A stretch of DNA of 64,000 bases from Candidatus Omnitrophota bacterium. Lineage in GTDB: Bacteria; Hinthialibacterota; Hinthialibacteria; Hinthialibacterales; Hinthialibacteraceae. Numbering within the stretch: position 1 is the stretch's first letter; every line of letters begins with the position of its first letter. Both the position numbers and the translations under genes were made by a program. Of this stretch, positions 8,153 through 44,420 are shown piece by piece. The stretch is taken from positions 71,879 to 135,878 of the forward strand of contig QZKN01000085.1 in the NCBI GenBank assembly GCA_003598175.1. The letters run 5' to 3'. The notes below the pieces were generated by a model that worked only from the letters and a program-made list of their open reading frames with translations, made no database searches and had not been told where the DNA came from.

Positions 8153-8230
8153 TTTGCTTCGTTTGCATTCTCCTGACGAAAAAGCAAATCATTTCCCTCT
8201 GATCGAAAACCAGTACCGCCTGGATCGGTT

Positions 8231-22818: not shown

Positions 22819-24324
22819 ATGCGCAAGATATTATTAGTCCGCACTGATGCGTCTACGCAGATTGGAACCGGTCATGTCATGCGTTGCCTGGCGTTGGCTC
22901 AAGCCTGGCTGGATGAGGGAGGCCGGGTCGTTTTCTTGTCGTCGAATTTCCCCGCCGGATTATTGCCGCATTTGCAGGAAGATGGGATTCGGTTATGTGA
23001 TTTATCGGCTGTACCTGGTTCACCGCAAGATGCGGTTGAGTGCGCAAAGTTCGCTCAGGAAATCGGTGCGAGCTGGATCATTGTGGACGGTTATCATTTC
23101 AATGCCGACTATCAAAAAGTCATCAAGGATCAGAATCTCCGTCTCCTGTTCCTCGATGATTATGGTCATGCGGATCATTATCATGCGGACATGGTGTTGA
23201 ATCAAAATTGTTGCGCATCCGAAGAGTTCTATCCTCATAAAGAATCTCATACGCAATTATTATTAGGTCCAAAATACGTTTTGCTGCGACGTGAATTCTT
23301 ACGATGGAGAGAGTGGCGCCGCACGATTTCCGAAAAGGCCGCGCGTATTCTGGTTACGTTCGGCGGCAGTGATACGCAGAATGTAACAATGAAAGTCATC
23401 CAGGTTTTGGAGCGAGTAAAACACTCTGATCTTCAAGTCGAAATTGTTGTAGGGGCAGGCAATAGATGCCGGGATTCCATTCAGGAATATGTTGTAAATG
23501 CAAAACAGAATTACGAATTATTATGTTCTATCGATACTATGGCCGAAGTGATGGCCTGGGCGGATATGGCTATATCCGCGGCCGGCGGTACGTGTTGGGA
23601 ATTGGCCTTTCTGGGAGTGCCGTCTCTGCTGCTCCTTACGGCGGAAAATCAAAACGGGAATGCCCAATACATGGAAGAATCTCATGCCGCGAAAATAATC
23701 GGACGTGCAGCCGATTTGGAACTTCATGATCTGGCGCAAGCAATCGAATCGTTCGTGCAGAATGAGGAAGTGCGGAAAATCATGTCGGAAAAGGGACGTC
23801 AATTGGTTGATGGATTTGGCGCGTCTCGGGTTTCCGCTGCGTTAATGAAGGAAGGATTATTTCTGCGTCCAGCGATGCCAACGGATTGCTGTATTCTTTG
23901 GGAATGGGCGAATGATCCGGTAACGCGAGCCATGGCTATAAACAAGAATCCCATCCCATTGGCTGACCATGTTCGCTGGTTCGAACAAAAAATGAAAAAC
24001 GCACAAAGCGTCATTCTCATTCTTGAGCACGACGCTGTACCGGCGGGACAAATTCGATTCGATATCGGTGAAGATCAAACCACTGAAATCGATATTGCCG
24101 TTGCTCCCTCTCACCGCGGGCGCTCTCTGGGAACCTGGCTTTTGCGGGAAGGAATTCGTTATTTTTTATCGTTCAATCAGTCGGTAAAAACAATTCTGGG
24201 ACGCATTCGGGAAGAGAATCAATCTTCGCAACGCATTTTTGAAAAGAGCGGATTTATGTGGGAAAAAAGTGAGTTCATCGAAGACGGCGTTCTTCGATAC
24301 TATAATTATAACGTCAACCAATGA
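22819..24324 (+). CDS. pseG: PseG UDP-sugar hydrolase fused to C-terminal GNAT (PseH-like)
   Basis: RTDASTQIGTGHVMRCLALA, VDGY, LLGPKYVLLRREF, TFGGSD, AAGGTCWE; C-terminal WANDP...AGQIRFD...HRGRSLG. Confidence 0.85.
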   Translation: MRKILLVRTDASTQIGTGHVMRCLALAQAWLDEGGRVVFLSSNFPAGLLPHLQEDGIRLCDLSAVPGSPQDAVECAKFAQEIGASWIIVDGYHFNADYQKVIKDQNLRLLFLDDYGHADHYHADMVLNQNCCASEEFYPHKESHTQLLLGPKYVLLRREFLRWREWRRTISEKAARILVTFGGSDTQNVTMKVIQVLERVKHSDLQVEIVVGAGNRCRDSIQEYVVNAKQNYELLCSIDTMAEVMAWADMAISAAGGTCWELAFLGVPSLLLLTAENQNGNAQYMEESHAAKIIGRAADLELHDLAQAIESFVQNEEVRKIMSEKGRQLVDGFGASRVSAALMKEGLFLRPAMPTDCCILWEWANDPVTRAMAINKNPIPLADHVRWFEQKMKNAQSVILILEHDAVPAGQIRFDIGEDQTTEIDIAVAPSHRGRSLGTWLLREGIRYFLSFNQSVKTILGRIREENQSSQRIFEKSGFMWEKSEFIEDGVLRYYNYNVNQ

Positions 24325-25361
24325 GCCATCCTAAACACACCATTACAATCGATCATCGTATCATTGGCGACGGGCACCCCTGTTTGATTATCGCGGAAAT
24401 CGGAATCAATCATGACGGCTGTCTGACCCGTGCTCATGAGATGATCGAGGCCGCCAAACAGTCCGGCGCAGACGCCGTCAAATTTCAAACGGTGGATCCG
24501 GATGCCAGTTATGTTCCGGAGAGTCCATCCTACCAAGCATTCTCCGGCAAGGGATTTACCGAAAGTCAATATCGCGAATTGATTGCCCATTGCCGGGAAT
24601 TGAATATGATCTTTTTTACAACGCCCGGAGATTTTCCCTCCCTGCGACTGTGTCAACACTTGCAGCTACCCGCGCTAAAAATCAGTTCGGGGCTGTTCAC
24701 CAATCTTCCGTTGATCCTGGAAGCCACTCGGCTGGGAATCCCTCTCATCATTTCCACGGGAATGAGCTACCTCTGGGAAATCTCTCGTCTGGTAACAACG
24801 CTGGAAAGTCAACATTTTTTTGAATTCGCTCTTTTGCATTGCGTGAGTACGTATCCGGTTGCCGAAGAGAAACTTAACTTACGGGCAATCGAATATCTGA
24901 AAACCATTTTTCCCTATCCTATCGGGTATTCCAATCATTGTCTTCATCCTCTCGCATGCAGCAATGCGGTTGCGGCCGGCGCCTGTATACTCGAACAACA
25001 CTTCACGTTGGATCGCTCCTTGCCCAATGCGGATCATTCCATTTCCATGGAACCGGATGCATTTGCCGTTATGGTCGAGAATGTGCGCAGCACCGAAAAA
25101 ATGTTGGGACGGGCCGACAAACGACCGACCGATGAGGAGTTGCAAGCCAAAGATAACGTACGGCGATATTTGGTCGCAAATTGTGACATTACCAAAGGCC
25201 AACCGTTCAATTCCGTTAATGTTGGAATCAAGCGCCTGGTGCAACAAACAGGATTAACTCCGGAATTCCACGAATTTGTTCTGGGAAAACGAGCCGGCCG
25301 GGATATGAACAAAAATGAGCCGATTCGATTGTATGATCTATTGGAACCGGAGTGGCATTGA
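24321..25361 (+). CDS. N-acetylneuraminate synthase family protein with SAF domain (PseI/LegI-like)
   Basis: AEIGINHDG, ADAVKFQT, LHCVSTYP, EQHFTLDR...DHSIS; C-terminal RRYLVANCDITKG SAF domain. Confidence 0.85.
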   Translation: MSHPKHTITIDHRIIGDGHPCLIIAEIGINHDGCLTRAHEMIEAAKQSGADAVKFQTVDPDASYVPESPSYQAFSGKGFTESQYRELIAHCRELNMIFFTTPGDFPSLRLCQHLQLPALKISSGLFTNLPLILEATRLGIPLIISTGMSYLWEISRLVTTLESQHFFEFALLHCVSTYPVAEEKLNLRAIEYLKTIFPYPIGYSNHCLHPLACSNAVAAGACILEQHFTLDRSLPNADHSISMEPDAFAVMVENVRSTEKMLGRADKRPTDEELQAKDNVRRYLVANCDITKGQPFNSVNVGIKRLVQQTGLTPEFHEFVLGKRAGRDMNKNEPIRLYDLLEPEWH

Positions 25362-26572: not shown

Positions 26573-28186
26573 ATGAATTTTATTTTAGACATTAAGAAAA
26601 TGAAAATCGACGCGGAAGGAATTGTCGATTTTCACTGGCCGATCGAGCGGAAAGAAATCACGTTGGTTCGGGATACGCTTCTCAATGCATATATTAAAAT
26701 CTATCAAGACCATGCCCATACCCATCCGGAAGATTCCCGTATATTCGGCCTATTTATCTTAACGTGTTTAAACCGAGTGATGGTTTTGTTTCAAAGCTGG
26801 GCTTTATGGAGTCGATTAACTGCCAAAGATATTGTTCCTGTAATATCCGAAAACAGCCAATGGATGCAGCATTACGCCCATGACGCGATGCCGGATGTCA
26901 ACGACCTTTCCAATCAATTGATCAACGGCCCCTATCGAAATCAAAAATGGTACGCGCCTTTGCTGCGTCTTTTGTGGCGAAGCAAAATCTTTCTAGCCTT
27001 TAACAATTTTTCTATGCCGCGTTGGCTCAATCCCGAGTGTATTATATCCACGGAATGTACCTCCTTCGTCGTAAAACATGCTCGTTCGGTCTCGGAACGG
27101 ATTGTCTATTCGTCCTATACTGATTGGTTTCCTCCGGTGGATCGTGAAATCGCCGAAGCATCGATCCATTGGAAACCGCTTCATGAGACCATGATCGATG
27201 AGATCGTGCAGGAAACCGAATCCGCGTTTCAAAAATTCAATATCACATTTACGGACAAAATCAAACATTACGTGCGGGAATGGATCAAGCAATCCACCGC
27301 GTCGATTCGATGGCGCTGTCATTTGTTATCAGAACAACCGGACAAATTGCCAAAGCGATTGTGGACCGGAACGGGAGGAACCATATGGGCGAAGATTTTT
27401 CGCCATGTCGTCCATGCCGATGGAGGGCACGTCACCGGCCATGATCACGGTATTGGAGCGGGGCATTTGAAATATCCTTACAAAATGTTAATTGATTTCA
27501 TGGATTGTCATCAGTTCGTTACTTTTACTCCTGCTCATAGCGATATGTTACAGCAAAATCTCCGGCAGGATTGGCTGATTTCAAATCATCCACCGGAAAT
27601 TTGCTCTCTCCCCATCTCGCCCGGACAGGAAGTCAAAGTCGCCGAATTATCCCGCCGGTTGCATGCGCCGCCCAGAAGCGTGATGTATATCTCTTCGTTT
27701 TATACGGGAGAGTGGTTCCATTTAGCCGTTCAAGTACCGGATTATATACAAATCGATTGGGAGAGTCGTTTGTTCGGTCGACTGCATCAGTGGGGGTATA
27801 CCATTTACCATAAGCCGCATCCGGAAAGCTTCGAATTCCCCCCCGAAGAATTGTATGCGCCGTTTCACGTGATTCGCTTGCAGGACCCCTTTGAAAAGGT
27901 CATGGATCGCGCCGATGTGATCCTGTTCATCAATCCGCAATCCACAGCAATGGTCCATGCGTTGCAAACAGATATCCCATTGGTCTTTATCGATGTCGGC
28001 ATGTTCGAATGGATGCCGGAAGCGTATCGCTGTTTGGAAAAACGCTGCCAGATCGTCCCGGGACGATTTGATGAGCAGAACCGCATCCTGATTGACTGGG
28101 AAGAACTGAAAGATAAAATTCCGAAAGCAGTCGGAATGAAGGATGATTCCTTCCGGCACAATTTTATCTACCCTCGAAATTGCTAA
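26573..28186 (+). CDS. Hypothetical protein with GT-B-like C-terminus, candidate nonulosonate transferase
   Basis: 537-aa ORF with GHDHG, YHKPHPE and QSTAMVHALQTDIPLV (HP and S/T motifs reminiscent of CMP-sugar transferases). Confidence 0.5.
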   Translation: MNFILDIKKMKIDAEGIVDFHWPIERKEITLVRDTLLNAYIKIYQDHAHTHPEDSRIFGLFILTCLNRVMVLFQSWALWSRLTAKDIVPVISENSQWMQHYAHDAMPDVNDLSNQLINGPYRNQKWYAPLLRLLWRSKIFLAFNNFSMPRWLNPECIISTECTSFVVKHARSVSERIVYSSYTDWFPPVDREIAEASIHWKPLHETMIDEIVQETESAFQKFNITFTDKIKHYVREWIKQSTASIRWRCHLLSEQPDKLPKRLWTGTGGTIWAKIFRHVVHADGGHVTGHDHGIGAGHLKYPYKMLIDFMDCHQFVTFTPAHSDMLQQNLRQDWLISNHPPEICSLPISPGQEVKVAELSRRLHAPPRSVMYISSFYTGEWFHLAVQVPDYIQIDWESRLFGRLHQWGYTIYHKPHPESFEFPPEELYAPFHVIRLQDPFEKVMDRADVILFINPQSTAMVHALQTDIPLVFIDVGMFEWMPEAYRCLEKRCQIVPGRFDEQNRILIDWEELKDKIPKAVGMKDDSFRHNFIYPRNC

Positions 28187-33709: not shown

Positions 33710-35560
33710 ATGTGTGGTTTTATAGCAATAATTTCCAAAGGCGAAAAACCGGTTTCGGTAGAACAACTCCAACGAATGAGCCAGGATATCATCCATCGGG
33801 GGCCGGATGATTTTGGAATGTGGACTCAAGATTGGTGTGGTTTGGCCTTTCGCCGATTATCTATTCTGGACCTGTCCGAACATGGACATCAACCCATGAT
33901 CGATCCGACGGGAGAATATGTCATTGTATATAACGGAGAAGTCTATAATTATCAATCTTTGCGCTCCCATTTGCAAAGTGAAGGAATTTTGTTTTCTTCC
34001 ACCTCGGACACGGAAGTGGTTCTTCAATCCTATATTCGCTGGGGGGAAGAATGTGTAAGCAAGTTTGTTGGTATGTTTGCATGCATTATCCTTCACATTC
34101 CGACGCGCAGGATTTTTATTGCGCGGGATCAATTGGGAATCAAACCGTTGTATTGGACGGAAAATCGCGATTTTATTTTTCTGGCCAGCGAAATCAAAGC
34201 ATTCCGGCACGCCGTAGCCTTTTCCCTGAACGAAGCGTCTCTCTATGAACAATTGCTGTTCCGTTATGTTTCCGGAACCGGGACTCCCTTTAAAAATATT
34301 TATAAACTGTTGCAGGGAACCTATTGGCGCTTCGAACAGGGCGCCGCACCGCAGATGTATCGCTATTACAATGTGACGGATTCCCTCAAAACGAAATCCT
34401 TGATGTCCGAACAGGAATTGCTGCCCCGTTTGGAGGAACTGTTGAAAGAGAGCATCCGCTTGCATACGGCGAGCGATGTTGGGTATAACATCCAATTGAG
34501 CGGCGGCGTCGATTCCAGTTTCATAACCGCGGTGTTGGCAACCGATTGGGAACAACAGTTGGATACGTTTTCAATCACGTTGCAGGATCGGGAATTTGAC
34601 GAGTCTCAATACCAGCAGATGGTGGTTGCCCGCTATGCCACGCGTCACCACGATTATCGTTTAAGTGACGTCGAATTCGATGCCGCCCTGGAAAAGGCGA
34701 CCTGGCACATGGATATTCCGATCGTTCATTTGGGATGCGTGTTTTTAATGGTTCTCTGTCATGAATCCGTGCACAATTCCAAAGTGATTCTGACCGGCGA
34801 GGGCGCGGATGAACTATTTGGTGGATATTCACGTTATATAATCGACAAAAAAACGAAATTGGCCCAACAGCTAAAACGCCTTGGTTTTTGCGCGGCAATG
34901 TTCCCCTCTCTGCCGTATTTCAATGGTTTGAAAAATCGCATGAACCGCAGCACCCTCGATTCCAGTTTGTATGTTTCGAAACCGGATATGGTGAGTTTCT
35001 TTGAGGGGATTCCCGAAAATCTTCACTTCCGTGAGAATACGATTCGTTCTATGGTCTCGTATCGCGATCAACTGTTCGCGCATGATCAGACGTGCTATCT
35101 TTGCTCTCTCCTTGATCGCCAGGATAAAATGTCGATGGCGGCTTCCGTGGAAGCGCGAGTGCCCTTCTGCAATCATCTGTTGTTTGAAATGATCAATCCG
35201 GTTCCTGACTCCGTGAAATTCAGAGGCAATCGGACTAAATCGCTGCTGAAAACAGTCGCGGAACATTACCTGGATGCCTCGCTCTTGCATCGTAAGAAAA
35301 TCGGACTTGTACTTCCGCTCGGACGCTGGCTGCGATCCGGCCCATTGTCCGAACGCTTGTCCCTTCTGACCGATCAGACCGCTCGGGACCGTGGATTTTA
35401 CAATCACAAAAATATTGTCGCCGCGATCGATGCGCATCGGCAAAATCGGCGGGATTATGGAAATTATTTATCGATTCTGATCATGTTCGAAGTCTGGATG
35501 CGAATGTTTATCGACGATCCTTTTCGGTATCGAGGTGATGCCAACGTTTCTTTTTCGTAA
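33710..35560 (+). CDS. asnB: Asparagine synthase-like glutamine amidotransferase (sugar amidation)
   Basis: MCG N-terminus, HRGPDD, RRLSILDL, YNGEVYN, LSGGVDSS, TGEGADELFGGY. Confidence 0.9.
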   Translation: MCGFIAIISKGEKPVSVEQLQRMSQDIIHRGPDDFGMWTQDWCGLAFRRLSILDLSEHGHQPMIDPTGEYVIVYNGEVYNYQSLRSHLQSEGILFSSTSDTEVVLQSYIRWGEECVSKFVGMFACIILHIPTRRIFIARDQLGIKPLYWTENRDFIFLASEIKAFRHAVAFSLNEASLYEQLLFRYVSGTGTPFKNIYKLLQGTYWRFEQGAAPQMYRYYNVTDSLKTKSLMSEQELLPRLEELLKESIRLHTASDVGYNIQLSGGVDSSFITAVLATDWEQQLDTFSITLQDREFDESQYQQMVVARYATRHHDYRLSDVEFDAALEKATWHMDIPIVHLGCVFLMVLCHESVHNSKVILTGEGADELFGGYSRYIIDKKTKLAQQLKRLGFCAAMFPSLPYFNGLKNRMNRSTLDSSLYVSKPDMVSFFEGIPENLHFRENTIRSMVSYRDQLFAHDQTCYLCSLLDRQDKMSMAASVEARVPFCNHLLFEMINPVPDSVKFRGNRTKSLLKTVAEHYLDASLLHRKKIGLVLPLGRWLRSGPLSERLSLLTDQTARDRGFYNHKNIVAAIDAHRQNRRDYGNYLSILIMFEVWMRMFIDDPFRYRGDANVSFS

Positions 35561-35575
35561 AAATGAGCTGACACG

Positions 35576-37345
35576 ATGTCGCGGCAAAACTGCATCCAAT
35601 GTCAAACAAAGGGGCCGAGCAATCGAATAGATTCGGGACGTATGAAGAATAACTGGTCTTTTATTCCAAGCCGCCGGCGAAACTGGCAAATGTGGGAGAC
35701 TCCCTCCCTGACTCTGCATCTCTGCGGGTGGGCATATCGCGGCGACGACTATTTAAGCGGCAAACAACTTTCTGACCATATAGTAGATCAAATGCAAGCC
35801 GCCTTGCCCTGGGAGACGGTCTTTTCGGAATTGAACGGTAATTTTGCCGTGGTGATCGGGAATGCGGAATGTGTGGTTTTTGGAGTCGATGCCGTCCGCA
35901 GCATTCCTCTTATATATCGTTCCAATAAAAATAGTATTTCCATCTCCGATTGCCTTTTTGCAATCCGGCAAACGAACGATGCAATCGATCCGGATTCGCT
36001 GATCGAATTCTGTGCTGCCGGCTATGTAACCGGCTCGCATACGCTATACGAAAACATGACCGCATTGAAAGCCGGCGAGTACGGCATGTATTGTCGTGAA
36101 TGGAATCGGCCGGATACGAAACGATATTTTCGTTACGATTGTGCCTATGATTCGCAGGAATCCGAGGCGCAACTTTGCGAGGAATTTAATAATATTCTTA
36201 TTTCTGTATTCTGTCGTTTAACGAAAATTCTTAACGGGCGCCAAGTGGTGATTCCACTCAGCGGCGGATTGGATTCACGGCTGGTGGCGTCTATGTGTAA
36301 GCAAATGGGATATGAAAATGTGCTTTGCTTTTCCTATGGCCTGCCCGATAATATCGAATCGGCGCGGAGTGAAAAAATCGCTCAAACCTTGGGATATCCA
36401 TGGATTCGGATTCCCTATACGGGAGCCAAATGGAAAGATACGTTTTCTTTGCCTGCGTTTCACGAGTACTTCAAACTCGGGTGCAATGGGATTTCCTTGC
36501 CGCATATCGACGATTGGCCGGCCACGCAGGCGTTGCGGTCCTCTGACCGGATTAGTGAGGACGCCGTTTTCGTTCCCGGTCATACCGGCGATTTTATTTG
36601 CGGGAGTCACCTGAAATATGTGTTCGATCCGGTCTGGCATGACGATCCCCGGGATTTGTTAGGGGCGCTCATCAAGAAACATTATATGTTGTGGAAACAT
36701 CTGCTGCACAATAAACGGGTAAAAGCCGCCATCGAACAGCGGATTCATGAAATTGTGCGGGAGTTTCCCAACACAACACCAGAAGATATCGCGCGCATGT
36801 ATGAATTCTGGGAATGGCAGGAACGGCAATCCAAATATATCATCAACGCGGTCCGCGTGTATGAATTTTTTTCCTTCGATTGGCGTATCCCGTTGTGGGA
36901 CCGGGACATTATGAACTTTTGGAAGGAAATACCACTGGAATGGAAATTTGACAAATATCTTTATCGTACCTATCTAGCAAACTACGATGCATTTGGTATC
37001 TTTCCGGATGTGAATCCTGTCGAAAAATGGTACCGCGAATCTACATCGAACCGATTGGACGCACATTACCGCCGTCGCATCAAGCAATGGCTGAAATCTT
37101 CATGGTTGTTATCACAGCCGTTTGATTATCTGGAGTCATATCGTTATCATTTGCGTACCTATTGGAGTGAACCGAAAGGAATATCGCGAGGGTACGGATT
37201 TTTTCCTTATGTTTTTGGAAACCGAACCAAGCGACATAGTACTTCCCTTTTGATCGAACCGGTTTTAAACTCGCTTGGCTTGGATGCGGAATTCCGAGCA
37301 TTGCGCTATGGAAAAATGAGTGATCACCGTATTTGGAGTGAATGA
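35576..37345 (+). CDS. Asparagine synthase-related protein (synthetase domain, degenerate glutaminase domain)
   Basis: PLSGGLDSR, VPGHTGDF, WQERQSKYIIN, PLWD; no N-terminal MCG. Confidence 0.75.
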   Translation: MSRQNCIQCQTKGPSNRIDSGRMKNNWSFIPSRRRNWQMWETPSLTLHLCGWAYRGDDYLSGKQLSDHIVDQMQAALPWETVFSELNGNFAVVIGNAECVVFGVDAVRSIPLIYRSNKNSISISDCLFAIRQTNDAIDPDSLIEFCAAGYVTGSHTLYENMTALKAGEYGMYCREWNRPDTKRYFRYDCAYDSQESEAQLCEEFNNILISVFCRLTKILNGRQVVIPLSGGLDSRLVASMCKQMGYENVLCFSYGLPDNIESARSEKIAQTLGYPWIRIPYTGAKWKDTFSLPAFHEYFKLGCNGISLPHIDDWPATQALRSSDRISEDAVFVPGHTGDFICGSHLKYVFDPVWHDDPRDLLGALIKKHYMLWKHLLHNKRVKAAIEQRIHEIVREFPNTTPEDIARMYEFWEWQERQSKYIINAVRVYEFFSFDWRIPLWDRDIMNFWKEIPLEWKFDKYLYRTYLANYDAFGIFPDVNPVEKWYRESTSNRLDAHYRRRIKQWLKSSWLLSQPFDYLESYRYHLRTYWSEPKGISRGYGFFPYVFGNRTKRHSTSLLIEPVLNSLGLDAEFRALRYGKMSDHRIWSE

Positions 37346-37348
37346 AAA

Positions 37349-37558
37349 ATGAGAAAAACGGTCTTAATCATCACCCTGCCGATTGTGTATTTTTTCTGCA
37401 ATGCAAATCACGCTTACGCGTATATCGATCCGGGAACCGGCAGCATTATCTTACAGGTCCTGCTGGGATTGATTCTTGGCATTGTCTATACGCTGAAGAC
37501 CTATTGGCTGAATGTGAAGGATTTTGTTTCCAGGGTATTTAAAAAGAAATCGATATGA
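37349..37558 (+). CDS. Small membrane protein with signal peptide and YIDPGTGS motif
   Basis: MRK-hydrophobic-HAYA|YIDPGTGS, then TM helix and basic tail. Its stop overlaps the next start (ATGA). Confidence 0.8.
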   Translation: MRKTVLIITLPIVYFFCNANHAYAYIDPGTGSIILQVLLGLILGIVYTLKTYWLNVKDFVSRVFKKKSI

Positions 37559-38931
37559 CGCTTGCAAGAGAACGCAGCTCGTTTCGTGATCCGTGTGGTT
37601 TTTTGTTCACTCACGAGGGTATCCTGTATCGGCAGATCAATAATCGATACCGGGAGAATTACGATCATTTGATTCATGGCGGTCTTTATGACGAGTTGGT
37701 GAAGGAAAATCTTCTGCTGCCCCATCGGGAAACGGATAAGGTTCAGATCGATTTTCCCGATGCATATAAAATTATTCAACCCGAAAAAATTAATTTTATC
37801 TCATACCCATATGAGTGGTCCTTTTCCCAGCTGAAAGACGCGGCGGAGCTGACCCTGCAAATCCAACGGATAGCCATGGATTATGGCATGTCCTTAAAAG
37901 ATGGCAGCGCCTACAACATACAATTCCATAAAGGCAAACCGGTTTTCATCGACACGCTTTCTTTCGAAATCCTCGATGAACGCAAACCCTGGATTGCCTA
38001 CCGGCAATTTTGCCAGCATTTTCTCGCGCCGCTGGCGTTAATGAGCTATGTCGATCCGCAGCTCAACACGTTGTTGGTCAATCATATCGATGGCATACCA
38101 CTGGATTTATGTCACAAACTGCTTCCGTTTTCCACCCGGTTTCGGTTTTCATTATTCACACATATCCATCTCCACGCGCGATTCCAGAAACAGTACGAAA
38201 CCAGGAAATTGGCACATGCACGGCGTGAGTCTTCCCAACAATCGATGCGCGCAATTGTGGATAACCTGCAAGCGGCAGTTCGCAAACTGACTTGGATTCC
38301 CTCGTCAACGGCGTTTTCCGATTACTATTCGCAAACCAACTATTCCTCTCATTCGTTTGAGCAAAAGAAAGAAATCATAGAGTCGTGGATCAAACGCTAT
38401 TCTCCCCGGATAGTGTGGGATATGGGAGCGAATGACGGCCTTTTCAGCCGGATCGCCGCCTCCCATGCCTCGTTGGTCCTATCCATTGATAATGATCCGG
38501 CGGCGATTGAGAACAATTACCGCATGTGCAAAGCAGAACACGTGACCAATATTTTGCCCTTGTTCATCAACGTGACCAATCCCAGTCCCGCAATTGGATG
38601 GGATAATCAAGAACGCAAATCGCTGGGTGAACGCGGACCTGCCGATTTGGCGCTGGCTCTGGCTTTGATCCATCACCTCGCGATTTCGAATAATCTTCCA
38701 TTGTCGCATGTGGCTGCGTTTTTCTCCCGAACGACGCATCGGCTCGTGATTGAATTTGTACCCAAAGAAGATTCGCAGGTGCAGCGTCTTTTGCAGAATC
38801 GCGAAGATATTTTCACCGACTATAACCAAAAAATATTCGAGCAGGAATTTTCCAATTGGTTTACAATCCTCGAAAAAGTCCCGATTGCCCAAACCACCCG
38901 CACATTGTATTGCATGGAAAGGCTGCCCTAA
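37555..38931 (+). CDS. NoeA-like protein: N-terminal kinase-like domain + class I SAM methyltransferase
   Basis: SFRDP, SYPYEWS, LKDGSAYNI, FIDTLSF; C-terminal WDMGANDG SAM motif, ALIHHL. Confidence 0.8.
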   Translation: MTLARERSSFRDPCGFLFTHEGILYRQINNRYRENYDHLIHGGLYDELVKENLLLPHRETDKVQIDFPDAYKIIQPEKINFISYPYEWSFSQLKDAAELTLQIQRIAMDYGMSLKDGSAYNIQFHKGKPVFIDTLSFEILDERKPWIAYRQFCQHFLAPLALMSYVDPQLNTLLVNHIDGIPLDLCHKLLPFSTRFRFSLFTHIHLHARFQKQYETRKLAHARRESSQQSMRAIVDNLQAAVRKLTWIPSSTAFSDYYSQTNYSSHSFEQKKEIIESWIKRYSPRIVWDMGANDGLFSRIAASHASLVLSIDNDPAAIENNYRMCKAEHVTNILPLFINVTNPSPAIGWDNQERKSLGERGPADLALALALIHHLAISNNLPLSHVAAFFSRTTHRLVIEFVPKEDSQVQRLLQNREDIFTDYNQKIFEQEFSNWFTILEKVPIAQTTRTLYCMERLP

Positions 38932-40494
38932 ATGAAACGAGTTTACTTTCCCATTCATCCGTTTCTGTTGTCTGTTTATTTTATCCTTTATGTTTATGCT
39001 CATAACGTAACTGAAATTGATTTTGTTAGGATTCTTCCGTATTTGTTCGCTTCCCTGGGATTAGCTGTCATCGCGGTTGCGGGTAGCTATGTGCTGTTTC
39101 GGGACATCATCAAAGCGGCGATTCTGGCCTCGGTTTTGATTTTTTTGTTTTTTTCGTTTGGTCATCTGTACGATTGGATTGACAATTATTATTGGGGAAC
39201 AATCAAAATCGGTCGAAGGCGCTATGTCTTTTATTTCTATGCCATCCTGGTAACCGGGCTTGGCTTCTATCTATATAAAACACGAAAAGCGCTGACCACG
39301 GTTACTTCCTTCCTGAACACATTGACCTTGTTATCAATTCTCATTTGTTGTTTTCAAATAGCCGTTTTTAATGTACGCCGCGCCGATATCCGGGATGCCT
39401 TCGACCAAGCAGATCATCCGGAAACATCGTCGTTCATCACGACATCCCCGGCGGATCCTCCGGATATTTATTATTTGATATTCGATGGATACGCCAATGG
39501 CAATGTGTTAAAAAACATGCTGGGATACGACAACGAAGAGTTCTTGTCGTATCTCGAATCTACAGGTTTTTATGTGGCGCGTAACAGCCGCTCCAATTAC
39601 GGGCAAACCCCATTGTCCTTGTCCTCGACCCTGAGCATGGATTACGTCAACTACGCGGAAGAACGCGTGGGATACCATACGGCCGATGCCTCCCTGTTGC
39701 ATCATCTGATTCGCTACAGCAAAGTGGCAAGCTATCTGAAGAACAGGGGATACCGGTATTATCATGTTGGTTCGGGATACTATGAACCAACGAATTATAA
39801 TCCGAACGCCGATGTATTCATCCAGGCGGGAGTCACGGATGAATTGGCAATGGTCCTTTTTAAGACCACGTTTTTCCGCATGTTCGAACTCTATTACAAT
39901 CCCATCACCAACGATCAACGAGCGAGAATTTTGGGCATGTTCGATGAAATCGCAGTGTTAAAAAAATCGGATACTCCGAAATATGTGTTCGCCCATTTTG
40001 TTTCCCCCCATCCCCCTTTCATCTTCGGGCCCAATGGCGAAGACATTTCCAACGTGCAAATGGATATGTTCGGCGACGTATGGAAAAACAAACAGGCCTA
40101 TTTTGATCAAATAATCTTTGTGAACACAAAAATTAAAAAAATGTGTGAATCTATTCTGGCCAATACCAACAGGAATGTCATCATTCTTTTACACAGCGAT
40201 CATGGATCGGGTTGCCTGCCGGGTCAGTTCAAGCCTGATGGACCGGATGAAATCCCTCTGCTGAAGAAGGAAAACATGGTCGAACGATTTGGAAATTTTA
40301 TGGCATACTATTTTCCGAATCAACAATATGACCGACTGTATCCCGGTATCACTCCCGTCAACTCTTTTCGGATCGTTTTCAACCAATTTTTCGACGACCA
40401 GTTTGAACTCCTTCCGGATAAAAGTTATACCTCCGATGCGCAGATTTATTACAAATTTTATGATATCACGGAACTGGCGGAATACGGGGAATAA
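38932..40494 (+). CDS. Membrane-anchored sulfatase/alkaline-phosphatase-fold transferase (NoeB/LtaS-like)
   Basis: About 5 N-terminal TMs; PDIYYLIFDGY, SNYGQT (Thr nucleophile position), SPHPPF, HSDHG. Confidence 0.75.
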   Translation: MKRVYFPIHPFLLSVYFILYVYAHNVTEIDFVRILPYLFASLGLAVIAVAGSYVLFRDIIKAAILASVLIFLFFSFGHLYDWIDNYYWGTIKIGRRRYVFYFYAILVTGLGFYLYKTRKALTTVTSFLNTLTLLSILICCFQIAVFNVRRADIRDAFDQADHPETSSFITTSPADPPDIYYLIFDGYANGNVLKNMLGYDNEEFLSYLESTGFYVARNSRSNYGQTPLSLSSTLSMDYVNYAEERVGYHTADASLLHHLIRYSKVASYLKNRGYRYYHVGSGYYEPTNYNPNADVFIQAGVTDELAMVLFKTTFFRMFELYYNPITNDQRARILGMFDEIAVLKKSDTPKYVFAHFVSPHPPFIFGPNGEDISNVQMDMFGDVWKNKQAYFDQIIFVNTKIKKMCESILANTNRNVIILLHSDHGSGCLPGQFKPDGPDEIPLLKKENMVERFGNFMAYYFPNQQYDRLYPGITPVNSFRIVFNQFFDDQFELLPDKSYTSDAQIYYKFYDITELAEYGE

Positions 40495-41664: not shown

Positions 41665-42711
41665 ATGGAGCTTAAAGTGGGAAAGGTGAATCAAACAATG
41701 GAACTTCTTCCTATAAGCGTCGTCGGCTTAGGCGGGTGGGGGAAAAATGTTGTCAGAAGTTTTTCGCAAACCCGACGCGCAAAATTATGCGTCCTTTGTG
41801 ACGAAAACGAAGAAGTGATTGCCCGACAGGCGGTTCTGTATCCCTACGCTGCGACAACGACTCAGTATTCGGAGATTCTTGCCGAATCGAATATCCATGC
41901 CGTTGCTTTGGTCACTCCTTCCCCCTCCCATTTCAATCTCGCAGTGCAGGCTCTCAACGCCGGAAAACATGTTTTTGTTGAAAAACCGTTGTCGCTCACA
42001 GTTGGTGACGCAAAGGAATTGGTTGCGCTCGCCGAGAAAAAACAACGAGTGGTAATGGTAGGTCATTTGTTGGAATACCACCCTGCCGTCAATTTATTGA
42101 AATCGTTGATCCAAACAGGCGAATTGGGCGATATCCATTACATCTATTCCCATCGCCTCAATCTCGGCGTGGTTCGCTTGGAAGAAAACGCGCTCTGGTC
42201 TCTCGCTCCCCATGATATTTCCGTGGTTTTGTATTTGTTGGGAAAAGAACCGACGCATGTTACGGCAGTGGGACAATCCTATCTCAATCCGGGTGTGGAG
42301 GATGTCGTCTTTTTGAATTTGCGATTCGGCGAGGAGCATATGGCCCAGATTCATGTCTCCTGGCTCGATCCACACAAAGAAAGAAAAGTGGTTATCGTCG
42401 GCTCCAAACGAATGGCCGTTTTCGATGACATGCATCCCAGCGAGAAAGTACGCATATTCGACAAAAGCGCCAATGTGAAAATCGGAACCGCCAATTATGT
42501 GGAATCGATCACGGTGCGCCACGGTGAAATCCGTAGTCTGATCGTTCCCAATCAGGAACCGCTCCTGAGTGAAACGCAACACTTCGTCGATTGTGTTTTG
42601 GATGGCAAAACACCACGCAGCGACGCTCATGACGGATTGCGAGTCGTAAAAATTCTGGATGCGGCGACTCGTTCTTTGCACCAAAATGGAATGCCGGTGG
42701 AGATACTATGA
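41665..42711 (+). CDS. Gfo/Idh/MocA oxidoreductase, WbpB/WlbA-like sugar 3-dehydrogenase
   Basis: GLGGWGKN, HVFVEKPL, ENALWSLAPHDIS, HVSWLDPHKER; directly upstream of a WbpD/WbpE-like fusion. Confidence 0.8.
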   Translation: MELKVGKVNQTMELLPISVVGLGGWGKNVVRSFSQTRRAKLCVLCDENEEVIARQAVLYPYAATTTQYSEILAESNIHAVALVTPSPSHFNLAVQALNAGKHVFVEKPLSLTVGDAKELVALAEKKQRVVMVGHLLEYHPAVNLLKSLIQTGELGDIHYIYSHRLNLGVVRLEENALWSLAPHDISVVLYLLGKEPTHVTAVGQSYLNPGVEDVVFLNLRFGEEHMAQIHVSWLDPHKERKVVIVGSKRMAVFDDMHPSEKVRIFDKSANVKIGTANYVESITVRHGEIRSLIVPNQEPLLSETQHFVDCVLDGKTPRSDAHDGLRVVKILDAATRSLHQNGMPVEIL

Positions 42712-44420
42712 CCGACTACAACAATGTTTTTATTCACGAAACCGCCGTTGTTGATGATCATGTGGAAATCGGAGAGGGGACGAAAGTATGGCATTTTACA
42801 CACGTCATGTCCGGCGCAAAAATTGGTAAAAAATGTTCGTTGGGTCAAAATGTGAACATAGCCGGACGCGCCGTTCTTGGGAACAACGTCAAAGTGCAGA
42901 ATAATGTCAGTATTTATGACGAAGTGATTCTCGAAGACGACGTATTCTGCGGTCCGTCCATGGTGTTTACCAACGTGATCAATCCGCGCGCGCATATTAT
43001 CCGCAAACACGAATATATGCCAACGCTGGTAAAACGAGGCGCCAGCTTGGGCGCGAACAGCACGATTGTGTGCGGCGTAACCATCGGCGAATACGCTTTT
43101 GTCGGCGCCGGCGCGGTGGTCGTCAAAGACGTGCTCCCTTATGCGCTTGTTGTCGGCGTTCCGGCTCGACAAACCGGCTGGATGTGTTCCTGCGGTATGC
43201 GCTTGACGTTTATAGGGAAAACGGCGATTTGCTCGGATTGTGGAAAACAGTACGAAATGAAATCGGAACAGGAAATTCAGGAAATTGTACCCTCGGATAA
43301 ACCAACGCACGTTCCACTGTTGGATTTGCAGGCGCAATACAAAACCATTCGACACGAAATCGAACCCGCCATCCGTGAAGTATGCGAAAAACAAATGTTC
43401 ATCTTGGGTCCGAAAGTGACGGAACTGGAACAAGCCATCGCATCGTATTCGCAAACCAAATTTGCCATCGGCGTTTCTTCCGGCACCGATGCGATTCTCG
43501 TCGCTTTGATGGGACTCGATATCGGCCCCGGCGATGAAGTAATCACCACGCCGTTTACGTTTTTCGCCACTGCCGGCTGTGTTTCCCGCCTTGGCGCCCG
43601 ACCGGTTTTCGTCGATATCGAACCGGATACTTTTAACCTCGATCCAGGCCGCATCGAAGAAAAAATTACGGCGAAAACGAAGGCTATCTTATGCGTTCAT
43701 CTGTTCGGCCAATGCTGCGACATGTCTCCGCTTTTGACCATTGCCAGCAAACATTCCTTAGCCGTTGTGGAGGATGCGGCGCAGTCAATCGGGGCCGAAT
43801 GGGAAGGAAAACGCGCCGGTTCGATTGGCGATGTCGGGTGTTTTTCGTTTTTCCCTTCGAAAAACCTGGGCGCATTCGGCGACGGCGGTATGGTGGTCGC
43901 CAACCGCGAGGATTTGGCCGAACGAATCCACATCCTGCGCACGCATGGATCTAAACCGAAATATTATCATAAGATCATCGGGGGGAATTTCCGACTGGAC
44001 GCGATACAGGCCGTCGTTCTTGCCGTTAAACTGAGGCATCTCGATGACTGGACGAAAAAACGTCAGGAAAATGCGGAAGATTATAACCGGTTGTTTACTC
44101 AGGCCGGACTCGCAAATGGTGCGGTGACGCTGCCGGCCGTCAAGCAGTCGCGCCATATTTTCAATCAATATACGATTCGAGCCAAACAACGCGACGAGTT
44201 GATGCATTATTTGAAGGATAATAAGATCGGTTGTGAGATTTATTACCCCGTTCCGATGCATTTGCAGGAATGCTTCGCTTCGCTGGGATACCATAAAGGA
44301 GATTTTCCCAATGCGGAACTCGCCGCAGAGGAAGCGCTTTCCCTCCCCATTTATCCCGAGATTTCATCGGCGCAAAAAGAATTGGTGGTGCAAAAAATCA
44401 AGGAATTTTATGAACGATAA
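42708..44420 (+). CDS. Fusion: WbpD-like hexapeptide N-acetyltransferase + WbpE/DegT aminotransferase
   Basis: N-terminal VWHFTHV, QNNVSIY, GPSMVFTNVINPR, GWMCSCG; C-terminal VPLLDL, SSGTDA, EDAAQSIG, FSFFPSKNLGAFGDGG. Confidence 0.85.
   Translation: MTDYNNVFIHETAVVDDHVEIGEGTKVWHFTHVMSGAKIGKKCSLGQNVNIAGRAVLGNNVKVQNNVSIYDEVILEDDVFCGPSMVFTNVINPRAHIIRKHEYMPTLVKRGASLGANSTIVCGVTIGEYAFVGAGAVVVKDVLPYALVVGVPARQTGWMCSCGMRLTFIGKTAICSDCGKQYEMKSEQEIQEIVPSDKPTHVPLLDLQAQYKTIRHEIEPAIREVCEKQMFILGPKVTELEQAIASYSQTKFAIGVSSGTDAILVALMGLDIGPGDEVITTPFTFFATAGCVSRLGARPVFVDIEPDTFNLDPGRIEEKITAKTKAILCVHLFGQCCDMSPLLTIASKHSLAVVEDAAQSIGAEWEGKRAGSIGDVGCFSFFPSKNLGAFGDGGMVVANREDLAERIHILRTHGSKPKYYHKIIGGNFRLDAIQAVVLAVKLRHLDDWTKKRQENAEDYNRLFTQAGLANGAVTLPAVKQSRHIFNQYTIRAKQRDELMHYLKDNKIGCEIYYPVPMHLQECFASLGYHKGDFPNAELAAEEALSLPIYPEISSAQKELVVQKIKEFYER

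Follow-up and report, generated by a model that had tools for sequence, protein, structure and literature searches.

Within the window, the stretch of 64,000 nucleotides of DNA analysed here, three plus-strand open reading frames encode proteins of 69, 458 and 520 residues (Table 1). The first two share an ATGA overlap at 37555-37558, and the TAA stop codon of the second (38929-38931) directly abuts the ATG of the third at 38932, which bears out the translational coupling claimed in the original prediction. The small gene starts 3 nt beyond the stop of an asparagine-synthase-like gene. No homologue of the latter adjoins the module at 57 other loci (0/57), and it is therefore placed outside the conserved unit. 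The surroundings in the window form a polysaccharide cluster with NeuB, aminotransferase, and glycosyltransferase genes.

Table 1. Features of the three-gene locus (positions within the window)
Feature	Position	Strand	Basis
Asn-synthase-like gene, without glutaminase domain	35576..37345	+	Context; Pfam/NCBIfam
Ribosome-binding site GGAG, 10 nt ahead of small-gene start	37335..37338	+	Read in sequence
Small membrane protein gene, 69 aa	37349..37558	+	ORF and translation; homologue of 71-aa ORF between nodL and noeA
Signal-peptide-like N-terminus, residues 1-24 (MRK, hydrophobic core, A-Y-A)	37349..37420	+	Probable cleavage before Tyr25
Signature Y-I-D-P-G-T-G-S-I-I-L-Q, residues 25-36	37421..37456	+	Family alignment
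Single membrane helix, residues 31-49	37439..37495	+	Hydropathy scan, mean 2.19 over 19 residues
Basic amphipathic tail K-x-Y-W-x-x-V-K...KKK, residues 50-69	37496..37555	+	Presumed cytoplasmic
Gene 2, NoeA-family bifunctional protein, 458 aa	37555..38931	+	tblastn, profile, AlphaFold2
Atypical protein-kinase-like domain, residues 1-250	37555..38304	+	Foldseek, VIA-align, invariant residues
Predicted catalytic loop K115-D116...N121	37897-37917	+	Invariant residues
D133 of "FID"	37951-37953	+	Invariant residue
Class I SAM-dependent methyltransferase domain, residues 250-458	38302..38928	+	Foldseek, VIA-align
SAM motif I, D289-G295	38419-38439	+	Invariant in homologues
Gene 3, NoeB-family sulfatase/alkaline-phosphatase superfamily membrane protein, 520 aa	38932..40494	+	Pfam, profile
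N-terminal membrane region, residues 1-150; three strong and two weaker hydrophobic segments	38932..39381	+	Hydropathy scan
Catalytic domain, residues about 175-520	39454..40491	+	Conservation in 21 homologues
D185, predicted ligand position	39484-39486	+	Invariant
T226, candidate nucleophile	39607-39609	+	Motif position
D423-H424, predicted ligand positions	40198-40203	+	Motif position, superfamily

The NoeA- and NoeB-like proteins

By sequence, gene 2 encodes a full-length homologue of S. meliloti NoeA (33.4% identity, 99% coverage, E 3e-58 by tblastn against noeA; E 2e-125 with the gene 2 profile). The AlphaFold2 model of its product reaches a pLDDT of 91.1 and a pTM of 0.90, and a hydropathy scan finds no membrane segment in it. 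The N-terminal domain, modelled alone (pLDDT 89.4), has as its best Foldseek match the amicoumacin kinase AmiN (E 8.1e-5), with protein kinases ranking next, and in VIA-align 50/50 among the matches listed are kinases or pseudokinases (Z 8.0-9.5). K115, D116, and N121 of its LKDGSAYNI motif, D133 of FID, and R26 show no variation across alignments of 36 and of 41 homologues. The C-terminal domain is closest to NodS (3ofj) in Foldseek (E 5.7e-7), matches many class I methyltransferases in VIA-align (residues 248-458, Z 16-18), and carries a VWDMGANDG motif (D289, G291, G295) invariant in 36 full-length homologues. The fusion of a kinase with a methyltransferase had been predicted from the letters alone, and both structural comparisons uphold it, with the kinase fold recovered even from the isolated domain. 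Fold matches of predicted models cannot separate a lipid or sugar kinase from a protein kinase, nor a phosphate O-methyltransferase from other class I methyltransferases, all of which score Z 16-18.

The product of gene 3 is, from alignments and hydropathy, a distant, membrane-bound homologue of NoeB. Its profile matches S. meliloti NoeB in two stretches (E 3.5e-22), and pairwise BLASTP aligns the two over 134 residues only (23% identity, E 6e-6). It passes the Pfam Sulfatase cut-off (27.4 bits against 25, E 2.6e-6), and its atlas neighbours are all sulfatase-domain clusters. Among 21 homologues, D185, H360, D423, and G425 never vary and T226 is kept in at least 90%, while D-E replaces D-H (D423-H424) in some of them. 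From motif position and superfamily, D185, H360, D423, and H424 are candidate metal ligands and T226 a candidate nucleophile. The membrane segments, metal ligands, and nucleophile Thr first proposed for this protein find their counterparts in the hydropathy scan, the Sulfatase match, and the conserved positions.

EptA/MCR-1, LtaS, OpgB, and PptA resemble the gene 3 product in their N-terminal membrane helices, sulfatase fold, Asp/His ligands, and Thr/Ser nucleophile. In sequence, however, gene 3 is far from all solved members of this group of membrane phospho-form transferases: profile searches of the PDB rank soluble sulfatases first, with E no better than 3e-4, and match an EptA-type domain only at E 0.8. 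EptA, LtaS, and OpgB take phospholipid donors and release diacylglycerol, and to our knowledge none of the transferases named needs a kinase-methyltransferase or a small partner. For a Legionella NoeB-like protein, the supplement of PMC9758233 lists EptA (5FGN, HHpred E 3.2e-27) and YejM (6v8q, FFAS).

The small membrane protein and a module already on record

The translated 69-residue protein reads MRK-hydrophobic-...HAYA, then YIDPGTGS-IILQ..., then a basic tail. Pfam and NCBIfam searches return no family for it, and its alignments make it a member of a large, sharply conserved, unnamed family of its own. The family profile gathers 12,690 cluster representatives at E<=1e-3, which combine a single membrane helix with the signature Y-[IL]-D-P-G-[ST]-G-S-x3-Q and a basic tail of consensus K-x-x-W-x-x-I-K-x-x-F. 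Tyr, Pro, both Gly, Ser, and Gln of the signature are invariant in 42 aligned sequences; among the 150 best representatives, Tyr, Asp, Pro, and Gln occur in all 150, and 148 have Thr or Ser at position 6. The signal peptide originally read as ending in AYA fits the family, in which Ala precedes the signature Tyr in 100/150 representatives and the N-terminus is hydrophobic in 97/150. The segment before the helix is signal-peptide-like or very short, and the first 15 residues beyond it hold on average 3.6 Lys/Arg and 0.2 Asp/Glu (150 representatives). The tail would accordingly face the cytoplasm, and cleavage would probably leave the signature as an exported N-terminus.

The pSymA operon of S. 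meliloti, nodL - (71-aa ORF) - noeA - noeB, encodes counterparts of all three proteins, in the order seen here and on one strand. Its 71-residue product, annotated only as "hypothetical protein" in the record used, carries the common signature (Ala followed by Y-L-D-P-G-T-G-S...Q) and matches the small protein with E 1e-9 by BLASTP and E 3.5e-15 by family profile. The original prediction had cited rhizobial noeAB as a similar pair; gene 2 is itself a NoeA homologue and the rhizobial operon includes the same small ORF. The S. meliloti genes differ from those of the window in being controlled by a nod box, with nodL in front, instead of lying within a polysaccharide cluster. According to passages citing Ardourel 1995, this operon affects host range, and a nodL mutant polar on noeA and noeB lost Nod-factor O-acetylation as its sole change; as cited, that work thus links no phospho or methyl group to noeA/noeB.

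Nor is the system undescribed, as had been supposed, since a survey of Legionella kinases (Sci Rep 2022, PMC9758233) reported the kinase-methyltransferase with both neighbours, as the family of Lani_1193/Lani_1194/Lani_1195 of Legionella anisa. Of its 816 neighbourhoods, 65% contain a small hypothetical neighbour and 38% one with an alkaline-phosphatase fold. The Legionella protein is described there as homologous to NoeA, with Arg replacing the catalytic Lys and the equivalents of D166, N171, and D184 retained, which match R26, D116, N121, and D133 of gene 2; Methanoculleus homologues are also mentioned, and loci of that genus match too. By this common NoeA homology and the matching descriptions, the Legionella trio is taken to be the same module. 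In the portions of the survey available, the function of the trio is left unassigned, the neighbours are treated as likely effectors, and the small one is given no motif, topology, or role. The trio of the window is very probably one more copy of a widespread micro-protein/NoeA/NoeB module, whose small protein is now defined as a large family with a sharp signature.

Distribution of the module

A homologue of the small protein adjoins the NoeA gene in 49/57 independent loci from many phyla and archaea. Of 35 genomes from the phylum of the window, three carry NoeA, and the same three carry the small protein. Across 201 genomes of another class, the small protein (15 genomes), NoeA (17), and NoeB (13) are all confined to the same 18, of which 11 hold all three families, and the other 183 have none. 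This adjacency and the size of the family argue for more than chance assembly, and the three genes stand as the conserved unit originally proposed, on the very profile and co-occurrence counts suggested for it.

A NoeB-family or Sulfatase-fold gene is present in 35 of the 57 NoeA loci, and in the remaining 22 the small protein and NoeA have no adjacent NoeB. In 5/5 genomes that keep the small gene apart from NoeA, a NoeB gene follows it immediately downstream. One locus (L012) combines one small and one NoeA gene with three NoeB genes, and three of five genomes carry 1, 5, and 2 unlinked NoeB copies, with no small gene nearby and a single small gene per genome. One small and one NoeA gene accompanying several NoeB genes fit a common donor-making core serving several transferases. 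No NoeB-family gene is found at E<=1e-20 in 2/5 genomes with the small-protein/NoeA pair, nor at E<=1e-30 in 3/14 such genomes of the class sample; these genomes may be incomplete, and if they are complete, the pair can work without NoeB.

A tentative pathway and its alternatives

The preferred reading, tentative and judged to have somewhat less than an even chance, is that NoeA makes a phospho(-methyl) donor on a membrane carrier, NoeB transfers the group outside, and the small protein couples the two. We infer the donor, the chemistry, and the contacts between the proteins as follows. The basic tail of the small protein would hold NoeA at the inner face of the membrane, where its kinase-like domain (ATP) and methyltransferase (SAM) would equip a carrier lipid with a phospho head group, probably a methyl-phospho one. 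Once the charged lipid has arrived at the outer leaflet, the NoeB-type transferase would load the phospho-group onto Thr226, with D185, H360, D423, and H424 making up the metal site, and hand it to an extracytoplasmic acceptor, in the window most likely the polysaccharide of the surrounding cluster. NoeA would then re-charge the lipid by-product. The small protein would serve as the common membrane-spanning subunit, its exported end starting at the invariant Tyr and its Gly-rich motif capping the helix where it meets the outer leaflet, next to NoeB or to the head group of the donor. The phospholipid-using transferases EptA, LtaS, and OpgB provide one analogy for this route. Two others are WbdD, in its union of kinase and methyltransferase (PMC9758233), and BcsF, whose cytosolic tail brings in a cytosolic partner and whose operon also encodes a phosphoethanolamine transferase (PMC11470070).

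An unlikely alternative separates the pathway into two decorations: NoeA, anchored by the small protein, would phosphorylate and methylate a lipid-linked glycan in the cytoplasm, capping or marking it, and NoeB would independently add phosphoethanolamine or phosphoglycerol from ordinary phospholipids outside. Its model is WbdD (E. coli O9a, O-antigen cap), which, according to PMC9758233, unites kinase and methyltransferase in glycan biosynthesis and is the one characterised enzyme of this kind, acting on the glycan end. Like gene 2, it joins a kinase-like and a class I methyltransferase domain in one polypeptide, and its methyltransferase domain is among the fold matches of gene 2 (Z 16.0, rmsd 3.0 over 184 residues); the 22 loci lacking an adjacent NoeB also suit this reading. 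However, the domain order of gene 2 is the reverse of that in WbdD and the coiled coil is missing, the two sequences resemble each other in the SAM-binding part only (E 0.35-0.45), and PMC9758233 treats the NoeA-like and WbdD families as clearly different. WbdD, moreover, has no small-protein or sulfatase-fold partner. The confinement of all three families to the same 18 genomes, and the small gene staying with NoeB in split modules, argue for one pathway, and many module copies lie outside glycan clusters, for example beside topoisomerase or GatB genes.

The shuttle role first proposed for the small protein is improbable: NoeB (or NoeA) would load a phospho-group covalently onto its Tyr25, Thr30, or Ser32, where the group would either stay, making the protein the acceptor, or be passed on. 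Tyr and Ser of the motif vary little or not at all, position 6 is nearly always Thr or Ser, and the motif is located within reach of a membrane transferase; related membrane transferases are known to modify protein Ser/Thr with phospho-forms (pilin by Neisseria PptA, FlgG by Campylobacter EptC). Yet Asp, Pro, both Gly, and the Gln in the helix are equally invariant, a pattern that suits a structural cap or binding loop better than a simple acceptor site. NoeA, besides, could not reach a motif outside the cytoplasm, and the unlinked NoeB genes, up to five per genome, contrast with the single small gene. DltX, a very small D-alanylation membrane protein encoded with its enzymes, resembles the small protein in size, in a conserved motif near the membrane surface, and in gene company. 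Pfam and NCBIfam reveal no relation between the two, their motifs and partner enzymes differ, and any counterpart in the trio to the acyl relay of DltX would be hypothetical.

Of similarly small probability is a regulatory module, in which the kinase-like domain would be a protein kinase or sensor steering NoeB through the small protein, in the manner of BcsE-BcsF. That all 50 matches listed for the N-terminal domain are protein kinases or pseudokinases agrees with it, as does BcsF (PMC11470070): this peptide crosses the membrane once, continues into an amphipathic stretch after its helix, and recruits a regulatory cytosolic protein through its cytosolic tail. The E. coli phosphoethanolamine cellulose operon shares the logic of the trio, with a cytosolic protein (BcsE), a small peptide (BcsF), and a membrane phosphoethanolamine transferase (BcsG) of the alkaline-phosphatase superfamily that acts in the periplasm (PMC11470070). 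In contrast, BcsE is a c-di-GMP sensor and no kinase-methyltransferase, BcsF as described lacks a conserved exported motif, and Pfam reveals no sequence relation to the trio, yielding only Sulfatase for gene 3 and no family for the other two. Structural similarity to protein kinases stops at Z 8.0-9.5, the best Foldseek match is a small-molecule kinase, and a fused methyltransferase with an intact SAM motif, found in 94% of about two thousand kinase-domain homologues according to PMC9758233, is hard to explain in a regulator. As BcsF is reported to make no contact with BcsG (PMC11470070), the Bcs analogy lends no support to contact between the small protein and NoeB in the preferred pathway.

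Very improbable, finally, is decoration of a secreted, Nod-factor-like signal or export of the proteins as effectors, an idea raised for Legionella and rhizobia in PMC9758233 and in line with the nod-box control and host-range effect of the S. meliloti operon, as free-living Chloroflexota, Bacteroidota, candidate phyla, and methanogenic archaea (Methanoculleus among them) also carry the module, hydropathy marks both NoeB and the small protein as integral to the membrane, and the window copy lies inside a polysaccharide gene cluster.

The module and its two larger proteins

The three genes are very probably a copy of the micro-protein/NoeA/NoeB module. They consist of a small-protein gene, a NoeA-family gene (gene 2) and a NoeB-family gene (gene 3), all on the same strand and coupled at the junctions reported in the original prediction. 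The small gene and gene 2 overlap by 4 nt (ATGA), and the TAA stop codon of gene 2 (38929-38931) directly abuts the ATG of gene 3. The small gene itself starts 3 nt past the stop of the gene upstream, with a GGAG located 10 nt 5' of its ATG.

Positions of the genes and loci mentioned in the text (window coordinates unless a locus or genome handle is given)
Feature	Position	Strand	Product or content
Small-protein gene	37349..37558	+	69 aa ORF
Gene 2 (NoeA-family)	37555..38931	+	458 aa ORF
Gene 3 (NoeB-family)	38932..40494	+	520 aa ORF
NeuB-like synthase gene	24321-25361	+	
ORF of the polysaccharide cluster	26573-28186	+	537 aa
Complete asparagine synthase gene	33710-35560	+	
Asn-synthase-like gene	35576-37345	+	589 aa
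Acetyltransferase/aminotransferase fusion gene	42708-44420	+	570 aa
Small ORF, S. meliloti pSymA record	L061:3760-3975		71 aa
NoeB-family paralogues, Ignavibacteriaceae MAG	L012:775-2271, 7365-8909, 9412-10959		
Gene downstream of NoeA	L025:9016-10560		
Small gene with partial NoeA match	G140:C59:1813-5948		
Split NoeA match	G231:C5:18749-20117		

Gene 2 resembles S. meliloti NoeA over nearly its whole length (33.4% identity, 99% coverage, E 3e-58 by tblastn), and a profile of 36 of its homologues matches NoeA with an E-value of 2e-125 over residues 18-475. It matches 65 records of the plasmid collection, of which 57 are from Sinorhizobium, with the match on noeA. The family is very large, with at least 8000 significant candidates, the best 120 of which share 55-60% identity with gene 2. 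A Pfam scan of gene 2 returns no match, NCBIfam gives a weak methyltransferase match only, and PDB sequence and profile searches yield only weak SAM-binding or methyltransferase matches. No membrane segment is detected by a hydropathy scan.

The AlphaFold2 model of the whole protein is of high quality (pLDDT 91.1, pTM 0.90), and fold searches performed with it list only class I methyltransferases, aligned to residues 248-458. The best Foldseek match of this domain is NodS (E 5.7e-7), and VIA-align returns Z-scores of 16-18 (top 18.1) over the same residues. The VIA-align matches include the phosphate/phosphonate O-methyltransferases MePCE, BCDIN3D and DhpI, as well as WbdD, the kinase and methyltransferase of E. 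coli O9a, none of which stands apart. Since these searches were filled by the methyltransferase domain and silent on residues 1-247, the N-terminal domain (residues 1-254) was modelled alone (pLDDT 89.4). The Foldseek matches listed for it are kinases, with the amicoumacin kinase AmiN first (E 8.1e-5) followed by protein kinases, and 41 matches have E<=1e-3. All 50 rows listed by VIA-align are protein kinases or pseudokinases, with Z-scores (8.0-9.5) that are middling but uniform, over 164-206 aligned residues and with rmsd values of 4.0-5.4. The predicted models thus support the protein-kinase-like fold proposed originally, with Z-scores too middling to indicate a particular kinase class. Gene 2 is therefore organized as a kinase-like domain (1-250) followed by a methyltransferase domain (250-458), at which the protein ends.

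The kinase-like and SAM motifs noticed originally are real and conserved. R26, D116, N121 and D133 are invariant in sets of 36 and of 41 homologues, and K115, which precedes D116, and the SAM motif D289-G-x-G295 are invariant in the alignments as well. Judging from motif spacing and from the description of the family in PMC9758233, R26 would be an arginine at the position of the catalytic lysine, and D116, N121 and D133 would correspond to D166, N171 and D184 of PKA.

Gene 3 is a distant member of the NoeB family, as judged by sequence profiles. BLASTP detects only limited pairwise similarity to S. meliloti NoeB (E 6e-6, 23% identity over 134 aa); a profile of 21 gene 3 homologues matches NoeB in two stretches with an E-value of 3.5e-22. 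Pfam identifies a sulfatase domain (PF00884) in residues 261-442 only, with 27.4 bits for a cut-off of 25 and an E-value of 2.6e-6, and all ten best ESM Atlas neighbours having a family are assigned to Sulfatase. A Pfam family exists for the EptA-type N-terminal membrane domain; PF00884 is the sole family reported by the Pfam scan of gene 3. Residues 1-150 contain three strong hydrophobic segments according to a hydropathy scan, and two weaker ones distinguished by eye. A PDB sequence search with gene 3 finds no match, and PDB profile searches return weak matches to soluble sulfatases and to the EptA-type soluble domain 4kav (E 0.8). Among the 21 homologues, D185, H360, D423 and G425 never vary, and conservation of T226 reaches at least 90%; the pair D423-H424 is replaced by D-E in some of them. 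From motif position and the superfamily, the conserved Asp and His residues are candidate metal ligands and T226 is a candidate nucleophile.

A single-pass small protein with a sharp signature

The small protein reads MRKTVLIITLPIVYFFCNANHAYA, then YIDPGTGS and IILQ, before turning hydrophobic and ending in basic residues. A simple hydropathy scan detects one strong membrane segment (residues 31-49), and the signature runs from Y25 (IDPGTGS-IIL) to Q36. The window protein fits the family signature, Y-[IL]-D-P-G-[ST]-G-S-x3-Q followed by one membrane helix and a basic tail, and is retrieved by the family profile in its own genome with an E-value of 3.6e-17. It belongs to no Pfam or NCBIfam family, and its ESM Atlas neighbours are unnamed "hypothetical protein" clusters only, with scores of 0.89. 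A word-based search with the 69-residue protein alone returned 4 matches and proved too insensitive in the light of the later profile search. The profile, built from 42 small proteins, retrieves 12,690 representatives (clustered at 50% identity) with E<=1e-3, and 3,792 with E<=1e-10, among 1.84 billion. This small-protein family and its genetic behaviour are newly defined here.

The 150 best members are 49-161 residues long; being the top-scoring ones, they are biased to the consensus. In this set, the Tyr, Asp, Pro and helix Gln of the signature are each present in 150/150 proteins, the two Gly in 149 and 150, the Ser in 146, and a Thr or Ser at position 6 in 148. An alanine precedes the Tyr in 100 of them, 97 have a hydrophobic, signal-peptide-like N-terminus, and 27 have 12 residues or fewer ahead of the Tyr. 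The first 15 residues past the helix average 3.6 Lys/Arg and 0.2 Asp/Glu per protein. These family features agree with the topology predicted originally, in which the N-terminus, beginning at or near the Tyr, would be exported and the basic tail would be cytoplasmic. The succession of a motif, a helix and a basic cluster is also that of a C-terminal sorting signal of the PEP-CTERM or LPXTG type; this reading was rejected since the motif follows the signal peptide directly, leaving no passenger to sort.

Five longer matches (113-236 residues) include no fusion to NoeA or NoeB, which is weak evidence that fusions of the small protein are rare. One family member of 161 residues (P0134) harbors two tandem copies of the signature, and in another of 236 residues (P0129) the signature region is joined to a TIR_2 domain.

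Co-inheritance of the three families

The three families are tightly co-inherited, associating a cytoplasmic enzyme with apparently intact kinase-like and SAM sites, a sulfatase-fold membrane transferase and a single-pass small protein. Gene 2 homologues were collected at 57 loci from one-genome-per-species contigs, spanning Chloroflexota, Bacteroidota, Verrucomicrobiota, Planctomycetota, Armatimonadota, Saccharibacteria, Melainabacteria, Spirochaetota, Methanoculleus and others. By phmmer, 48 of these loci have a small-gene homologue adjoining that of gene 2; by profile, 49 do. Most loci have it upstream in the same orientation; in six Bacteroidales loci it lies downstream, and one locus has a divergent arrangement. 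In three of the eight loci lacking an adjacent small gene (L015, L057 and L059), the locus is truncated by the end of the contig. Whole-genome searches find exactly one copy elsewhere for each of the other five, and each of these five unlinked small genes immediately precedes a NoeB-family gene (E 3e-99 to 3e-129).

A NoeB-family gene is found by profile in 29 of the 57 loci. A Pfam scan of 106 immediate neighbours, 21 of which contain PF00884, adds six loci through Sulfatase neighbours, bringing the number to 35. Five genomes with a NoeB-less locus were searched: NoeB is encoded elsewhere in three (1, 5 and 2 copies), and no NoeB was found at E<=1e-20 in the other two. No small gene was found within 1.5 kb of these 8 unlinked NoeB copies, five of which belong to a single genome (G042). 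In an Ignavibacteriaceae MAG (L012), three NoeB-family paralogues surround one small-gene/NoeA pair.

The window's own genome contains one copy of the small protein and one of NoeA. Among 35 genomes of its phylum, each of these two families occurs in three, and the same three genomes hold both. A sample of 201 genomes, from the class of locus L027, gives 15 genomes with the small protein, 17 with NoeA and 13 with NoeB, all within 18 genomes, with none in the other 183. Eleven of the 18 carriers have all three families, three have the small protein and NoeA, one the small protein and NoeB, one a contig-end NoeA fragment and NoeB, and in two the sole match is a partial or distant NoeA-like one. 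Of the 14 genomes of the sample having both the small protein and NoeA, 13 have the two side by side.

The spread of the module is patchy (3/35 and about 18/201 genomes), and identities of 50-60% are retained across phyla and domains, which together suggest frequent horizontal transfer. In other genomes, the module adjoins unrelated housekeeping genes (for example topoisomerase, GatB and YidC), and is thus a self-contained, mobile unit.

Several loci show particular arrangements. Genome G140 of the class sample has three NoeB genes, and next to its small gene only residues 369-458 of NoeA are matched; this NoeA may be decayed. In genome G231 of the same sample, the NoeA match is broken into two reading frames, suggestive of a frameshift or of an assembly error. 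Four Bacteroidales loci (L022, L034, L048 and L054) display the order sulfatase-fold gene, NoeA, small gene and, immediately downstream, a gene for a YidC-type insertase (Pfam 60KD_IMP), which may reflect plain synteny or a membrane-insertion link. In Leptolinea loci, NoeA lies apart from the small gene and NoeB, with three unnamed genes downstream of NoeA. NCBIfam searches with 12 unexplained neighbour proteins from related loci were uninformative, except for a weak Bud32/LanKC-like kinase match (E 1.8e-6) in one of these three genes downstream of NoeA, in L025.

Relation to known systems, a possible mechanism and the surrounding cluster

The original prediction of an undescribed cassette holds in that the trio is a real, conserved unit; it does not hold as to novelty, the NoeA/NoeB module having been noted bioinformatically in 2022 (PMC9758233, Sci Rep). 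According to the available part of that paper, the Legionella anisa protein Lani_1194 represents a family with a novel kinase-like domain; of about two thousand homologues, 94% also carry a fused methyltransferase. An Arg takes the place of the catalytic Lys, and the equivalents of PKA D166, N171 and D184 are kept. The homologues occur in 1201 species, including Methanoculleus, and NoeA is one of them. Its neighbour Lani_1193, present in 65% of 816 neighbourhoods, is presented there as a hypothetical protein with no conserved domain, the listed match ranges ending at residue 65. Lani_1195 (38% of the 816 neighbourhoods) is described as NoeB-like with an alkaline-phosphatase fold, related to EptA by HHpred (E 3.2e-27). 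In the same portion of the paper, the function of the system is left open between decoration of a secreted signal and action on the envelope. The genes noeA and noeB have been known as rhizobial host-range genes since 1995 (Ardourel et al. 1995, via citing papers), and in those citing papers their role is still called unknown. In our literature search, Lani_1194, Lani_1193, NoeA-like and NoeB-like, as well as NoeA together with kinase, methyltransferase and alkaline phosphatase, were found in PMC9758233 only; the motif strings of the small protein were not found in a relevant context, nor was relevant follow-up work.

The module is very common, in many bacterial phyla and in methanogenic archaea, and has no known reaction for any member. 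Four points are added here: the module has a third component, the small ORF, which looks obligate and bears a sharp signature; the classical nodL-noeA-noeB operon contains this ORF; split modules keep it together with NoeB; and one core pair of small protein and NoeA can accompany several NoeB genes. As to the second point, a 71-residue ORF annotated "hypothetical protein" lies between nodL and noeA on S. meliloti pSymA, overlaps the noeA start and carries the signature AHA|YLDPGTGS...Q, so that the operon seems to have a fourth, unnamed gene. A Singulisphaera plasmid likewise has an unannotated 60-residue ORF of the same kind before genes annotated "SAM-dependent methyltransferase" and "LTA synthase family protein". 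These four points lead to a concrete, testable three-part model in S. meliloti, which is tractable and harmless.

We infer that the three proteins act in one pathway placing a phospho-substituent on an extracytoplasmic target. Tentatively, and with somewhat less than even confidence, we propose a lipid-carrier phospho-transfer mechanism. The tail of the small protein would dock NoeA at the membrane, where, with ATP and SAM, NoeA would equip a lipid carrier with a phospho (probably methyl-phospho) head group. NoeB would then move this head group, via a phospho-Thr intermediate, to an extracytoplasmic acceptor, and NoeA would re-charge the released lipid. Such a mechanism fits the association of one NoeA/small-protein pair with several NoeB genes, the retention of the small gene with NoeB in split modules, and the lipid donors used by known NoeB relatives. 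It also fits the methyl-phosphate made by WbdD, to our knowledge the only kinase-methyltransferase fusion characterised so far. WbdD differs from gene 2 in its organization, a methyltransferase followed by a kinase and a C-terminal coiled coil, and its PDB profile match to gene 2 is limited to residues 281-320 (E 0.35-0.45). A three-chain complex prediction with the mature small protein, gene 2 residues 11-458 and gene 3 residues 1-507 gave no answer, with scores of 0.02 and 0.03 for a mark of 0.32, and weighs neither way.

The E. coli phosphoethanolamine-cellulose system offers a likeness of architecture only, no Bcs Pfam family being found in the trio. From the available part of PMC11470070, BcsF is a single-pass peptide whose tail recruits a cytosolic partner, BcsE, and which is encoded in an operon with a membrane transferase of the alkaline-phosphatase superfamily, BcsG, although BcsF does not touch BcsG.

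A more far-reaching version of the model, which we consider improbable, makes the trio a new ATP/SAM-driven machine for envelope decoration. NoeA would load a methylated phospho head group onto a membrane lipid and re-charge the lipid by-product, NoeBs, often several per genome, would move this group to different extracytoplasmic glycans or lipids, and the Tyr-first, Gly-rich micro-protein would be a hitherto unrecognised membrane-spanning coupling or carrier-binding subunit across Bacteria and Archaea. If this is true, noeA and noeB would also receive their first biochemical role in rhizobial host range.

The window's trio is an ordinary, typical copy of this known but unsolved module, within a polysaccharide gene cluster, the product of which is therefore probably the acceptor here. 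Upstream on the same strand are encoded a NeuB-like synthase, an ATP-grasp protein, a 537-residue protein, a PIG-L deacetylase, an ABC exporter, FemAB-like and GNAT acyltransferases, a second PIG-L, an asparagine synthase and an Asn-synthase-like protein. Downstream follow a GT4 glycosyltransferase, a GFO/IDH/MocA oxidoreductase, a fusion of a hexapeptide-repeat acetyltransferase with a DegT/DnrJ/EryC1 aminotransferase, and another GT4. This fusion, NeuB, the ATP-grasp protein and the two PIG-L deacetylases suggest a pathway for an aminated or acylated, possibly nonulosonic, sugar. The Asn-synthase-like protein immediately ahead of the small gene was considered as a part of the unit and rejected, its gene being at 0/57 loci. 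It possesses a synthetase domain without a glutamine amidotransferase domain, and the complete asparagine synthase is encoded just before it. For the 537-residue protein of the cluster, Pfam yields no family at E<=0.01.
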